From a bacterium (lineage in GTDB: Bacteria > Patescibacteriota > Dojkabacteria > SC72): 64,000 nt of DNA. Below are positions 48,001 through 54,000 of this stretch, piece by piece; the first letter of the stretch is position 1; every line of letters starts with the position of its first letter. Made by a program: the position numbers. The stretch spans positions 265,799 through 329,798 of the forward strand of contig JAJTYH010000002.1 in assembly GCA_021463465.1 (NCBI GenBank), in the 5' to 3' direction.

Positions 48001-51000
48001 CGAGCCAGCATAAGTTCTTGCTTACAACACCTATAGGCAAATATCCTCAAGAAGTTTTCGACTTAGTTTTCTACGGCAAAGGGTCTAAGCCAAAGTACAC
48101 AATAATGTACACAAATCGACAAGGCTTCAAACGTACATATGACACTCGATTTGAAGGTGTTGTCCCTCAATTGCAACGCAGGTACTACGAAACTGATTCA
48201 GAATACATTAGAGAAGAGATTGATAAATACATGGTTGAGAAAGAATGTTCGCAGTGCAAAGGTAAAAGACTTAAACCATATTCCTTAGCAGTCACAGTGG
48301 GAGAAAAGAATATCGACTCGATTGTAAACACTCAGATTGAAGAGCTATACCATTTCTTTGAAACATTGAAACTTAAAGGTAACTCTGCAGAGATTGCTAA
48401 ACCTGTGCTCAAAGAGATTGTTAGTAGATTGAGGTTTCTACATAATGTTGGTTTGACCTACCTCACTCTATCTCGCAGAGCTGGAACTCTTTCTGGTGGA
48501 GAATCGCAACGTATCCGTCTTGCATCACAAATAGGCACGGGCCTTACAGGGGTTCTTTATGTGCTTGATGAACCTTCAATTGGTTTGCACCCCAAAGATG
48601 TTTCTAAACTTATTACCTCACTTGAAGAGCTACGAGACCTAGGTAATTCCGTTGTCGTGGTAGAACATGATCTCGAAACTATCCATAAAGCCGACTGGCT
48701 TATTGATGTAGGCCCAGGCGCCGGCGTGCATGGAGGTAACATTGAAGCTGAGGGAAGTCTTGATACATTCAAGCAGCAGGACTCTCTAACTGCCAAGTAC
48801 TTAAACAAAACCTTAAATGTAGGCGAAGATCTAAAGTTAAATAAATTAGCCGATTCGTCAGAGCGCCAAATTTCTCTAAAAAGCGTTACAACTCATAACT
48901 TAAAAGACGTTTCAGTCAATATACCGCTAGGTAAGTTTGTTTGTGTTACAGGGGTATCGGGTAGCGGAAAATCCTCACTTATTAATGACACCCTCTACCC
49001 TGCTTTAATGAACCGAATTATGAAAGCCAAGATGCAGGAAGGCCAATACGGAAGCCTGGAAGGCTATGAGAAGCTCGAAAAAGTCATCGGTATAGATCAA
49101 ACCCCAATAGGTCGTACCCCACGCTCTAACCCGGCCACATATACAGGAATCTTTACCGATATTAGAAATATGTTCTCACAAACGCCAGAATCTAGAAGCA
49201 GAGGTTATACCCCTTCAAGATTCAGCTTTAATGTGAAAGGTGGAAGATGCGAAAAGTGTAAGGGTGATGGACAAATCAAGATTGAAATGCAGTTTTTGCC
49301 AGACGTTTATGTTACATGCGATGAATGCCTAGGCAAAAGATACAACAAAGAAGCATTACAGATTGATTTCAAAGGTAAGAACATTGCCGATGTATTAAAT
49401 ATGACAGTAGAAGAGGCGTTAGAATTCTTCTCACCTATCCCAAGTATCAAGCGAAGACTTCAAGTATTGCAAGAAGTAGGTCTTGAATATATTAAGCTCG
49501 GACAATCAGCTACCACACTTTCTGGTGGTGAATCACAAAGAATCAAGCTTTCTAAAGAACTATCCCGACATTCTAGAGGAAATACTTTATATATCCTCGA
49601 CGAACCTACCACTGGGTTACACTTCCATGACGTTGATAAGCTTCTGCATATCTTGAAGATGTTAGTTGAAAAAGGCAGTAGCGTAATAGTAATAGAACAT
49701 AACACTGATATTATTCGATTTGCTGACTGGATTATCGACTTAGGGCCTGAAGGCGGAGACAAAGGCGGTGAGATAATAGCAGAAGGAGATTTGAAAAGTA
49801 TAAAGGAAAACAACAAAAGTGAGACAGGCAAATATATCTAAGCACCTTGCTTAACAACCGCAATAGCCTCATTAAAGTGTTTCTCCCATCCCTCAAAGTA
49901 TTTCAACCACGTTTCCTCTTGTGTTACACCAAACTTAGCGACAATACTACCTTCATTATTGAGTATATCCGTTGAATGAATTTCCGAATGATATTTAGGA
50001 ATCAGCCCATAGGATAAGCTTTTAATTTCATCCCGCTCTAAACCTTTCATACTAGCTAAAGAGTGGATTGTCTCTCTACTCTTTAACTCTTCCTTCGCGT
50101 GTTTAGCCATAGTTTTCTGCTCGTAGACCTGAGGAAACATATAGGACTGCAAAATTATCTTATATAACTTAGTCGGAGCCAAAATTACTCTAGTACCAAT
50201 TTCCGTCTCATGTACCAAATTGCGAATATTTGTCCCATTATTCTTAATTATCTGACTTGCCAATGTCATACCCGAAATAATTTCATTGCTGAAGCCTTTA
50301 TAATCAACTTTATCTCCCTTTACCAATGGAATATTGTAATAAACACCCTTAGACTGTGCGGACCACTTGATAACTGGCCTTAATTCAGATCCCGAAATAA
50401 TAGGCTTGAGATAACTCTTAACTGGCTTCATGCCCCCACTTAAAGCACTCATATCAAATTCTTCGTTAATTTCGACAATACCTGTACTTTTGATTCCATA
50501 ATCATCCACTTCGCCAATCTGATTTGTGAAAAGACATTCAAGGTCAAAGATTATTGGAAAAGGCATATTGATAACGACATTTTCTGCGTTGATATCAATA
50601 GCCCTCAGGGCTAAAAGTATTGAAGCCACCTGGCCTAAGTTGTAGTAATACTCTCTAAGTTCTTCATTATTTCTCGATTCCTCGTTCACCTTAATGAACT
50701 TTCGCTGGATACAGTCATTGAGAACGGAATGAGGAGGAAAAGATTCTTTTAAATGTGGAAATAAACTTGATAGGAATTTATCCAAAAAAATCGAGTAATA
50801 TGCCCTGTTCTCAAAATACACATTACTACCAGATTTATACCTCATATCATTAAATTTATGAACATCTCCCAAAATCAAAAAGTCTTCGCTACGAGTAATT
50901 TTTCGGCCGTAGATAAGACTTTCGTTTAGCTCATTAAAGAAGTTTTTTAATAAGGATTGAATATTTGAGTGCAGTTCATCCATTTCGAAGAATTTACCTT

Positions 51001-54000
51001 CATGTACAAAATCAGAAAAATTCCTGACTTTTTGCGCGTAAAAAGAAGTAACTATAGTCGGTAATAGCAAATCTTCGAGGGAGACTCCTAAAAATCTATA
51101 ATCAGGGAACTGCATCCCTTGCCGTTTCGCCCAACTAACCAGACCTTTTAGCAGAGCATCTCTCATAAATAAAGATTAATCATCATTACATGTGCCTGTT
51201 GCACAGCATGTGTAAGATTCACTTGGTCTCAAACCAAACTTCTTTAACTCCTCTACATTGGCATCAAATTCACCAACTCCGAGAACATCAACACCCATTA
51301 TCGCTATTTGATTCAACTCCATTTGTGGTTTAGATTAAATTAAATACTTCTGCTCAATAACTTCTGCCTTTAAATCTTTAAGAGCAGCGAATAAGCTTTT
51401 TTCCTTAGATATCACCTCAGCAGAAATTTTCCCAGCCCCTAAGTTCCGCAGATAATCAACTGCAAACTCAAGTAATTTTAAAGCATTTCCTTTGTTATCG
51501 TGGGAATCAAGTAAGCATAATGCCAAAATCTCAGCATTTCTACTTGTTAACATTGTATTAACAAACCCTAAGAAACTTTTTGATTCGTCTAAAAGTACAA
51601 AATACTTAAATTCACTCTTATCATCACTAATACGAGCGCTTACATGCTTGAGAATTCCATCAAAATTGGTTTTATATTTATCATAACCAAATAGTTGATT
51701 TGAAGACATAAATTTACTAACCAGAAGGTTACAGATTTCCTCAGAATGACTTACATTTGCAGTGACTACTTCCATTATAACTCCAGAAAAAATTATAACG
51801 AGAACCTACTTGAATAATGTCTCAAAACTATCTCGAAGTCAACTCGATAAGACTATTAAGATTTAAATATTTAATCTCTTCTCCAGTCCTTTTCTTAACT
51901 TCATAGCCTCCTTTTTCCAAACTCTTCTGACTTACCACAATTCTATAAGGTAGCCCTATTAAATCGGCATCGTTGAATTTCTCCCCAGCACTTGCCCCTC
52001 CCCTATCGTCCCACATCACTTCGACTCCAGCTTTTGTAAGAGTCTCATAAATCTTGAGTCCTTCTTCCTGGGCGTTTTCTCCCAACGCAATCAGGTGAAC
52101 CTTATATGGAGCAACACTTTCTGGCCAAATCATTCCCTTGTCATCATGGAATTTTTCAGCTATCACTCCAAGCAATCTACTAGTTCCAATTCCATAGCTC
52201 CCCATATAAACAGGCTTACTTTTCCCATCTGCATCAACAAATTGATAGTCGACAGCATCGGTAAACTTAGTCATAAGTGGAAAAATGTTACCCACCTCAC
52301 TTGCCTTGAACGCTTCATACTCCTCAGATGTTTCAGGATATAAATCTCCTGATTTAGCCACTTTCAGGTCATGAAACTTTTTTGGTTTTTGAAGATCTCT
52401 CCCCCAGTTCACATTGGCCAAGTGATAATCGGTTCGATTCCCACCTGTTTCAAAATTTATCAACGGTTCGATCGAATCATCAATAAAAACCTCTACATCA
52501 TTTGGTAAATTCACAATTCCAGCATAACCTACCTTTGCCCCTGTAACCTTCTCTACCGTTTCGTCACTAGCTAACTTTAACTCCTTCACCCCAGCTACCT
52601 TCTTTAATTTCAATTCGTTGACATCATAATCGCCACGAACGGATGCTACCAAAATACCTTTTTCTGATTCGAAAATAAGAGTCTTTGTTGTTTGCGAAGG
52701 TTTAATTCCCATAAACTTTGAAAGTTCATCAACACCAATAATGCCCTTTCCCAGAACTTCCTCCATTGGCTTCATCTCACTATCCTGCTCCAAAGCAACA
52801 GCTTTAGATGGTGCAATTTCCTTATTAAAGCATTGGTTATTACTCTTAACACGAAAGATTAGATCCTCTCCCGTTTCCAGTCGAGTCTGGAACTCATGCG
52901 AATACTCTTCAGTGAAGTCACCCCCTGAAGCAGCTGTGTAGTAGGTTTGATCTCCCAGTCCTAAGCGATTATAAACTTGAATGTAAGCCTCTCTGGCGAC
53001 TTCGTAAAAGGCTTTCAAGTCTTCCACACTCTTATGGAATGAGTACAGATCTTTCATTCTAAATTCCCTGGTTCGTAGCAAGCCTGTTTTAGGTCTCTCT
53101 TCATTTCTGAACTTAGTTTGAATTTGATAGACAGCAAAAGGTAAATCTTTATAACTAAAGTTAAACTTCTTAGCAGTGGGGGTAATTACATCTTCATGAG
53201 TAGGATTAAGTACATACTCAGCATCATTCTTCTTCAAAGACCCTTCGTTAGCCCCAACTACCTTGAAAAGCACATCAACACTATCAAAACGGTTAGTACG
53301 CTTCCAATATTCAGTAGGCACAATAGAAGGCATTAGAAGCTCTACACCAATCTTGTCCATCTCTTCACGAACAATCTGTTCAATCTTGTGTAAAACCCTC
53401 ACCCCAAGAGGTAGAAATGTATATGCACCAGCCATCACCTGATCAATAAAGCCTCCCCTAATTAGGTATTCAACCCCTTTTGTGTCAAATTCTTTGTCTG
53501 CCTTAAGTGTCTTGCCGAACAATTTGGTGTATCGCATTGTAGTAGTATAAAAAAATAAACGCCCTTACAACAATTTAAGTTAATCCTTAAACTATTGCAA
53601 AGGCGTGTAAATCCGCGGTACCACTTTGCTTTCATCTAAATGTTTCCACTTAGATCTCGTATGCTAACTGAGTATTAGCAACTCCCTGTTTACATTAGAG
53701 GGAACTAAGAAGGTTAAGGATAATGATCCAATCCCTTCTCACTCCAGGAGTGGGACTCCTTTCAATGTGATGTAAGATATTCTAACAGTTATAGATGAAA
53801 AAGTTAAGATACAAATCCCCTGTCTTTGTCTATCAAATATCTCATATATTCAGAAACGGTCATATCATTTGAAGCAGATTCCACATTAAGATGACCTAAT
53901 TGCGACTTAGTAAGGAACATATTGAAGCGCTGATTTAATGCAGCCTTACTGTGTTTCGCCACAAATGTTTGAACTATATGGTCCAAATTATTTTCGTCAT

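Follow-up and report, generated by a model that had tools for sequence, protein, structure and literature searches.

A conserved three-gene cassette of Patescibacteria encoding a GNAT-fold protein, a Cys-bearing precursor-like peptide and a predicted stand-alone LanM-type dehydratase domain

In contig JAJTYH010000002.1 of a bacterium of the Dojkabacteria lineage SC72 (assembly GCA_021463465.1), the 64,000 nucleotides (nt) from position 265,799 to 329,798, referred to here as the window, contain three adjacent minus-strand genes, which encode a GNAT-fold protein of 146 amino acids (aa), a 48-aa precursor-like peptide and a 442-aa enzyme with a DUF4135 domain. These genes constitute a real, strongly conserved three-gene operon of the candidate phyla radiation (CPR)/Patescibacteria. 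All coordinates are those of the window, and the cassette is arranged as follows.

51775..51335, minus strand: cassette gene 1, GNAT-fold protein of 146 aa (coordinates of the open reading frame (ORF) re-checked)
51322..51176, minus strand: gene of the putative 48-aa precursor peptide MELNQIAIMGVDVLGVGEFDANVEELKKFGLRPSESYTCCATGTCNDD, stop codon included (ORF coordinates re-checked)
51166..49838, minus strand: gene of the 442-aa DUF4135 enzyme, predicted to be a compact stand-alone LanM-type dehydratase domain without a LanC domain

The GNAT-like gene and the peptide gene are separated by 12 nt and the peptide gene and the enzyme gene by 9 nt, and in relatives the ORF of the peptide abuts or overlaps that of the enzyme. 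An earlier note on this DNA had proposed the peptide gene with these coordinates, its translation and the start of the enzyme gene 9 nt downstream, all of which were confirmed. The same note regarded the peptide gene as hidden; it had indeed been missed by the ORF track then in use, but public gene calls on identical contigs already include the 48-aa product. In the window, TGA terminates 11 of the 58 likely genes. Thus, the standard bacterial code (code 11) applies, and the alternative codes 4 or 25, which are used by some CPR lineages, were ruled out.

The peptide can be divided into a putative leader and a putative core.

51224..51322, minus strand: proposed leader, residues 1-33, with an inferred boundary (mean pairwise identity 28% among 17 peptides)
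51179..51223, minus strand: proposed core SESYTCCATGTCNDD, residues 34-48 (evidence: 17 distinct peptides in an anchored alignment)
51191..51205, minus strand: near-invariant motif C40-A41-T42-G43-T44 (alignment of 17 peptides)

This motif occurs in one copy in the whole window, and the final 15 residues of the peptide contain three Cys, three Thr and two Ser, as had been counted before. When 17 distinct peptides are aligned on the motif, with position 0 assigned to the Ala (or Gly) after the conserved Cys, Ser or Thr is found at position -5 in all 17 (S36 in the window, four residues before the conserved Cys), and position -4 is occupied by T, S or Y. Cys is present at position -2 in 12/17 and at position -1 in 16/17 peptides, the single exception carrying its Cys at position -2. 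Position 0 is Ala in 16 peptides and Gly in one, and is followed in 17/17 by T or S at +1, Gly at +2 and Thr at +3. Position +4 is Cys in 13 peptides and K, R or D in the others. Every invariant core residue is written with several synonymous codons across the peptides, indicating purifying selection at the protein level. In all lineages examined, the DUF4135 gene is immediately preceded by a small ORF, so that the conservation check proposed in the earlier note turned out in favor of the peptide. These comparisons support the small ORF as a genuine, conserved precursor-like peptide.

The mean pairwise identity of the 17 peptides is 65% in the core versus 28% in the leader. The leaders comprise 20-35 aa and have only a loose G-x-x-E-(L/F)...E-L pattern in common. 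Lanthipeptide antibiotics usually show the opposite trend, with the leader being better conserved than the core, and the better conservation of the core suggests a conserved target or role of the product. A classical double-glycine precedes the core only at two loci, L017 and L019, and the respective region of the window peptide reads ...KKFGLRP-SES. The window peptide shares with LanA precursors a C-terminal core with Ser/Thr and Cys and the adjacent enzyme gene; a leader ending in GG, GA or GS, or a leader of the NHLP or Nif11 type, was not found in it. Its comparison with NCBIfam and Pfam gave no significant match, the sole listing being a ribonucleotide reductase model at a chance-level 0.18. 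Two of three more distant members retain the motif (…SSSGCCASGTRG and …DCGTSKSCGTGTCMY), and in L091, the most remote member, the core has diverged (…ACTTGEGCTTAE). The 55-aa peptide at L092 has a core that looks internally duplicated (DCGTSK / SCGTGTC), and the GC content of its contig, at 45%, is above that of the other contigs. A scan of viral contigs with the core DNA pattern yielded one match, which was rejected as chance because its contig has a high GC content, the matching frame runs antisense to a 176-aa ORF and there is no DUF4135 context.

The 442-aa protein matches the Pfam family PF13575 (DUF4135) over residues 157-394 with 77.5 bits against a cut-off of 29 (E 1.5e-21). With the LanM model TIGR03897 it reaches 80.7 bits against a cut-off of 304 bits, and only model positions 213-487 of 932 are covered, which represent the N-terminal half of LanM. 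The search against DUF4135 models thus agrees with the assignment as a LanM-dehydratase-like protein in the earlier note. A lipid-kinase-like dehydratase fold is found in the protein, which ends without a LANC_like Pfam match and lacks a LanC-like zinc cyclase domain. Positions 73-432 of the family profile align to CylM 217-603, and relative to LanM the N-terminal helical region is shorter by about 140 residues. Some members of the family are labelled 'lantibiotic modifying enzyme' in the automatic annotation of the Joint Genome Institute. These data support the prediction that the protein is a LanM-type dehydratase domain of lipid-kinase fold that stands alone.

For the active site, the roles of CylM residues (PMC4550811) were transferred by profile alignment, and residues were counted over 56 family representatives.

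50858..50869, minus strand: GDVH block, residues 100-103, with D101/H103 corresponding to CylM D252/H254 (P-loop, phosphate elimination), from the profile alignment
50537..50596, minus strand: predicted catalytic loop D191-I-N193-A-E-N196...D208-L-E210, corresponding to CylM D347, H349 (Asn here), N352 and D364
50171..50191, minus strand: R326-V-I-L-A-P-T332, corresponding to CylM R506...T512 (phosphate-elimination residues, KA domain)

The motifs GDVH (100-103), DINAEN (191-196) and DLE (208-210) had been recognized before, with a spacer of 12 residues between the latter two; the spacer from N196 to D208 comprises 11 residues. Phosphotransfer residues are kept throughout the family, D191 and N196 in 56/56 and D208 in 55/56 members. 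The same applies to the elimination residues, with D101, H103 and R326 present in 56/56 members and T332 present as T in 51 and as S in five. The Asn at the canonical His position (CylM H349), to which the earlier note had drawn attention, is real in the window (N193), but this position is variable in the family (N31, H12, Y5, I4, others). A more telling change, which had been overlooked, is apparent at the equivalent of the ATP-binding Lys (CylM K274). The window has E119 at this position, which is K/R in only 20/56 members, and position 109 on the preceding strand, which is mostly Val in LanMs, is K/R in 56/56. In the same hmmalign table, His349 is kept in 49/50 full-length LanMs and in 25/27 members of a tier of proteins of about 500 aa, and both groups retain the Lys of the YKP motif. 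Thus, the rewiring of the active site is specific to the short family, and catalysis presumably depends on the relocated basic residue K/R109.

The 146-aa protein passes the threshold of the Pfam model Acetyltransf_1 (PF00583) with 23.3 versus 20.7 bits. Its AlphaFold2 model has a predicted local distance difference test (pLDDT) value of 93.3, and Foldseek retrieved 362 PDB matches with this model at E<=1e-3, all of those listed being GNATs, so that the earlier suggestion of a GNAT-like neighbor was borne out. The best PDB matches of the family profile are RimI (5e-8; 9mto) and Naa30 (3e-5), and archaeal N-alpha-acetyltransferases (NATs) are also found. With the RimI equivalog TIGR01575, the protein scores 20.1 bits and does not reach the cut-off of 86.4 bits. 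It has a GNAT fold and is closest to RimI/NAT-type N-alpha-acetyltransferases. The pyrophosphate loop for acetyl-coenzyme A (acetyl-CoA), Q/R-x-x-G-x-G/A, reads D93-N-K-G96-N-A98 in the window, where G and A are retained; among 16 GNAT members, the loop Gly position holds E/D in 12 and G in two. An alternative placement of the CoA motif at 'RNLGAGK' (residues 110-116) was ruled out by the alignment with the RimI profile, which puts the motif at 93-98. The family has its own set of invariant residues (N26, Y31, Y34, K35, R48, Y58, G70, F71, N73, E120), including a conserved basic pocket formed by K35, R48, Y31 and Y34. The loop and this different invariant set leave room for a non-canonical or non-catalytic role of the protein.

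A GNAT-like gene is present in 28 of the 31 loci with a family-level enzyme and is missing in two lineages (L032-34 and L091). At L092 (3287-3988) it is present but divergent from the peptide and enzyme genes, and L093 also carries a GNAT-like gene. As a separate observation, three FemAB-family genes (Pfam 2.4e-24, 7.9e-16, 1.1e-10) lie just upstream of the GNAT-less cassette at L033 (303-3288; also at L032 and L034). FemAB genes encode GNAT-fold, aminoacyl-tRNA-dependent transferases, and their presence at L032-34 could be a coincidence or a functional replacement.

For the detection of cyclases, a LanC hidden Markov model (HMM) was derived from 50 full-length LanM matches, of which the 420 C-terminal residues were taken. 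This model had no match in the 64-kb window or in any of the 31 family loci. As a positive control, it recognized 34 of the 36 distant loci listed with 76-390 bits, comprising every full-length LanM ORF there. A 14-bit match to a 162-aa ORF in L001 was considered spurious, being restricted to a single lineage and without Pfam support. No C39 peptidase/ABC exporter, LanB, LanKC or YcaO was found in the flanks, which hold housekeeping genes for aminoacyl-tRNA synthetases, UvrA, a PEGA protein and a glycosyltransferase. This is in accordance with the earlier statement that LanC, LanB, LanKC, transporter and protease genes are absent from the vicinity and that the enzyme has no LanC domain. PADLOC gave no match for the three cassette proteins and hence no link to a known defense system. 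A candidate exporter is found near one cassette only, that of L091 (1-3989; P0077), whose neighbors are a MacB-type ABC transporter (FtsX/MacB_PCD + ABC_tran) along with a P-type ATPase on the opposite strand.

A word-indexed search revealed four enzyme clusters with 32-41% identity, each following a protein of about 146 aa and an ORF of 37-48 aa, and an exhaustive HMM search was needed to reveal the family. Among 1.84 billion representatives, this search recovered about 78 clusters at E <= 1e-33, all of them with at most 477 aa, which form a discrete family. After a score gap, the next tier (E >= 1e-28) consists of proteins of about 500-550 aa and of full-length LanMs of 900-1100 aa. Loci were scanned with a 20-sequence alignment, the 56-sequence alignment being too diverse. 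The scan of GTDB species genomes yielded seven loci, each of which bears the label Patescibacteria, Dojkabacteria or Saccharibacteria, and a metagenome scan added twelve more, after which three distant representatives were inspected directly; further cassettes were found with the GNAT-like profile. Altogether, the cassette is conserved in 31 loci from about 20 distinct lineages, whose enzymes are 20-40% identical. Every relative with an organism label belongs to the Patescibacteria, a restriction to CPR that rests on the seven GTDB loci. The neighborhoods vary by lineage and include proS/uvrA, gyrA, ribosomal proteins with an ATP-grasp cluster, FemAB genes and toxin-antitoxin genes, indicating that the three genes travel as a unit.

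Many further DUF4135 proteins of about 470-630 aa (P0080-P0157) score just below the short family and are too short for a LanC domain. Cyclase-less DUF4135 proteins thus seem to be commoner than the literature suggests, although some may be fragments. At L014/L015 (1-5807), four ATP-grasp genes, a 7TM_transglut protein and a MATCAP-domain gene lie immediately upstream of and divergent from the cassette, and this cluster may represent a second peptide-modification system.

In contrast to the LanM enzymes CylM (PDB 5dzt) and LicM2 (PDB 6st5), which comprise 900-1100 aa with a C-terminal LanC domain and have conserved H349 and K274 (CylM numbering), the cassette enzyme has about 445 aa and no LanC domain, and its family conserves neither of the two residues and has an invariant K/R109 instead. 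Cyclase-less enzymes of this kind that are encoded together with a ribosomal precursor, as found in the cassette, have been reported before. PoyF is a cyclase-less enzyme that dehydrates one Thr in polytheonamide biosynthesis (PMC9505594). By description, on which the comparison is based, PoyF also is a stand-alone dehydratase of the LanM N-terminal type acting on a Thr of a ribosomal precursor. However, it belongs to a large multi-enzyme proteusin cluster with an NHLP-leader precursor and performs a single N-terminal dehydration, whereas the cassette consists of three genes and its peptide combines a short leader with conserved Cys. EmbM, encoded in a minimal cluster of Ca. Eudoremicrobium together with a precursor of its own, makes the diphosphorylated phospeptin (Paoli et al. 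2022, PMC9259500; PMC9505594). Compared likewise by description, EmbM resembles the cassette enzyme in being LanM-dehydratase-like and cyclase-less and in being paired, within a minimal cluster from an uncultivated lineage, with a precursor of its own. In contrast to the cassette enzyme, which keeps the elimination residues, EmbM lacks them, and phosphothreonine is its end point. The EmbM precursor is free of Cys and has a GG site in a leader of the Nif11 type, and a GNAT partner is absent from the cluster. The published PoyF and EmbM systems show that the claim of an undescribed architecture, a stand-alone DUF4135 enzyme paired with its own substrate, was overstated.

A further divergent DUF4135 dehydratase, CcaM/LanMbC of the dehydrazoles, produces dehydro amino acids without lanthionine rings (PMC10676384). 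CcaM comprises about 1015 aa, works independently of a leader, needs prior azole formation by a YcaO and depends for its activity on a fused class III-type cyclase domain that lacks zinc, and such partners are absent from the cassette (PMC10676384). Regarding the third cassette gene, RimI/NAT enzymes have the fold in common with the GNAT-like protein, whose family differs in its degenerate acetyl-CoA loop. The N-terminal acetylation of the lanthipeptide paenibacillin, as cited in PMC3951391, is a precedent for a role of such a protein. Full-text literature searches found no description of this GNAT-linked family of about 445 aa. While RiPP (peptide made ribosomally and modified post-translationally) cassettes with LanM-type dehydratase domains are known in kind, the family of about 445 aa, its rewired active site, the link to a RimI-like GNAT, the short leader and the conserved Cys-bearing core were not found described. 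Large surveys of lanthipeptides took the LanC domain as their anchor (Walker 2020, PMC7268733; RSOS 2024, PMC11251773), and the DUF4135 network of the dehydrazole study dropped sequences below 500 aa (PMC10676384). Both practices would explain why this short family was overlooked.

It is moderately probable that the genes form a self-contained RiPP cassette of CPR/Patescibacteria, mobile as a unit, in which dehydration is followed by cyclase-free formation of small thioether rings and a GNAT accessory step. For this cassette we infer dehydration, ring formation, a GNAT role, a site of leader cleavage and a biological function along the following lines. The 48-aa product would serve as precursor, in which a variable leader precedes a conserved core of about 12-17 residues. 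Using ATP/Mg2+, the 442-aa enzyme would most likely phosphorylate conserved Ser/Thr residues of the core, with S36, T42 and T44 as candidates, and would then eliminate the phosphate, resulting in dehydroalanine or dehydrobutyrine. Addition of the thiols of conserved Cys residues (C39/C40 and, if present, C45) could lead to small (methyl)lanthionine rings without LanC, with ring closure being spontaneous or templated by cassette proteins. Possible rings are an i,i+4 ring from S/T at position -5 to Cys at position -1 and an i,i+3 ring within the frequent T-G-T-C, both distances being typical for small lanthionine rings. The RimI-like GNAT-fold partner would most likely modify a peptide amine, for example by N-terminal acetylation after leader removal, or act as a substrate-binding accessory protein.

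Several observations weigh against this pathway. Both the DxH His and the ATP-binding Lys are variable in the family, and the alanine mutants H349A and K274A of CylM keep only slight activity (PMC4550811), so that the pathway has to assume that K/R109 presumably substitutes in catalysis. The C-terminal Cys is not universal, being K, R or D in 4/17 peptides, and a two-ring product can therefore not be general. Furthermore, the Gly of the acetyl-CoA loop is mostly replaced in the GNAT-like family, the GNAT-like gene is missing in two lineages, and the cassette contains neither a protease nor an exporter.

The remodelled active site, with the H349 and K274 equivalents lost, would also fit a pathway in which the enzyme acts as a kinase only, as for phospeptin, and a peptide phosphorylated at core Thr/Ser is the end product. 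A LanM-like enzyme without cyclase that halts at phosphorylation and is encoded in a minimal cluster has a precedent in EmbM (PMC9259500, PMC9505594). However, EmbM has lost its elimination residues, whereas the full tetrad is kept here (D101, H103 and R326 in 56/56, T332 as T/S in 56/56), which favors ATP-dependent dehydration over phosphorylation alone, two options between which the earlier note had not decided. In addition, the EmbA core has no Cys, while Cys is nearly invariant in the cassette core, and a kinase-only pathway is therefore considered unlikely. Dehydration could also occur without thioether formation, leaving a linear peptide in which the Cys residues would serve as metal ligands, as acceptors for acylation by the GNAT-like protein or as partners in disulfides. 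This would be in line with the missing cyclase, with the basic pocket (K35, R48, Y31, Y34) and degenerate CoA loop of the GNAT-like protein, which hint at non-standard chemistry, and with the CC pair and variable C-terminal Cys, which give no single obvious conserved two-ring topology. Yet free thiols tend to cyclize spontaneously with a dehydro residue at a distance of three or four residues, and the invariant S/T at position -5 with Cys at position -1 has the classic i,i+4 lanthionine spacing. A linear product is thus regarded as distinctly unlikely.

Since each genome was seen in part only, a LanC-type cyclase and a LanT encoded elsewhere might complete an ordinary class II lanthipeptide pathway, and the GG leader ends in L017 and L019 would normally imply a LanT-type peptidase-exporter. 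Such a split system is improbable, because LanC was detected neither in the window nor in the flanks of the 31 loci with a working positive control, because the three genes move jointly between unrelated neighborhoods and because CPR genomes are small. That the small ORF is no substrate at all, but a spurious or regulatory upstream ORF next to a DUF4135 protein acting on something else, is very improbable. A clear Shine-Dalgarno sequence was not seen upstream of the peptide ATG in the window, which would fit such an ORF. However, its amino-acid sequence is conserved with synonymous codon turnover in about 20 lineages with enzymes only 20-40% identical, its position directly upstream of the enzyme gene is fixed, and it is rich in Ser, Thr and Cys, as expected for a LanM-type substrate.

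The proposed cyclase-free RiPP cassette could be part of a more far-reaching scheme, a phylum-wide lanthipeptide-like pathway of CPR that combines three traits. In this scheme, the kinase/lyase site would be rewired, with the catalytic Lys on a neighboring strand in a WNK-like manner and a dispensable DxH His. The GNAT with its degenerate site would replace LanC in cyclization or templating, or perform other non-acetyl chemistry, and the product would have a conserved cellular or host-interaction role, as a cofactor-like or signalling peptide, instead of being a strain-specific antibiotic. The latter trait is suggested by the core being more conserved than the leader, by the housekeeping-gene surroundings and by the lack of an exporter or immunity gene. 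That all three traits apply jointly is doubtful.

CPR/Patescibacteria have tiny genomes and very few recognizable biosynthetic clusters. The conservation of the cassette across many lineages with such genomes suggests a function that is worth the genomic cost, possibly in the interaction of episymbiont and host. With about 445 aa, the cassette enzyme would be the smallest natural LanM-type dehydratase so far. It keeps the elimination machinery without the canonical Lys and His and without a cyclase, beside conserved Cys. This would make it a clean system for studying the minimal LanM needed for dehydration, leader recognition without the N-terminal capping region and the question of whether small lanthionine rings form without LanC. 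In addition, the short family exposes a blind spot of LanC-anchored and length-filtered mining.

The stop of the DUF4135 gene overlaps the stop of the convergent uvrA gene (plus strand, 47016..49841) by 4 nt (49838-49841), leaving no space for an intergenic terminator. On the other side of the cassette, the following promoter candidate was found.

51814..51842, minus strand: weak sigma-70-like promoter match, candidate only, just upstream of the GNAT-like gene and within the proS end

It is a mere candidate because promoter-like matches in the region occur at background rate (nine found versus 8.2 expected), which renders the promoter and terminator scan uninformative.

Elsewhere in the window, Rfam identifies nine tRNAs, among them two tRNA clusters (27143-27420, 28065-28136, 58325-59135), and no other family reaches threshold. 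A 201-aa ORF without Pfam match (53804-54409, minus strand) is located between proS and a glyoxalase-family gene, and counterparts of about 185 aa occupy the same position in L001 and L006. A 501-aa class I aminoacyl-tRNA synthetase of the Trp/Tyr type (42777-44282, minus strand) carries an N-terminal YbaK/ProX-type tRNA_edit domain, which is an unusual editing-domain fusion (Pfam tRNA_edit at residues 29-149 and tRNA-synt_1b at 174-451). The orthologues in L003 and L012 (449-451 aa) are without tRNA_edit, and the fusion is also called in L001 and L006.

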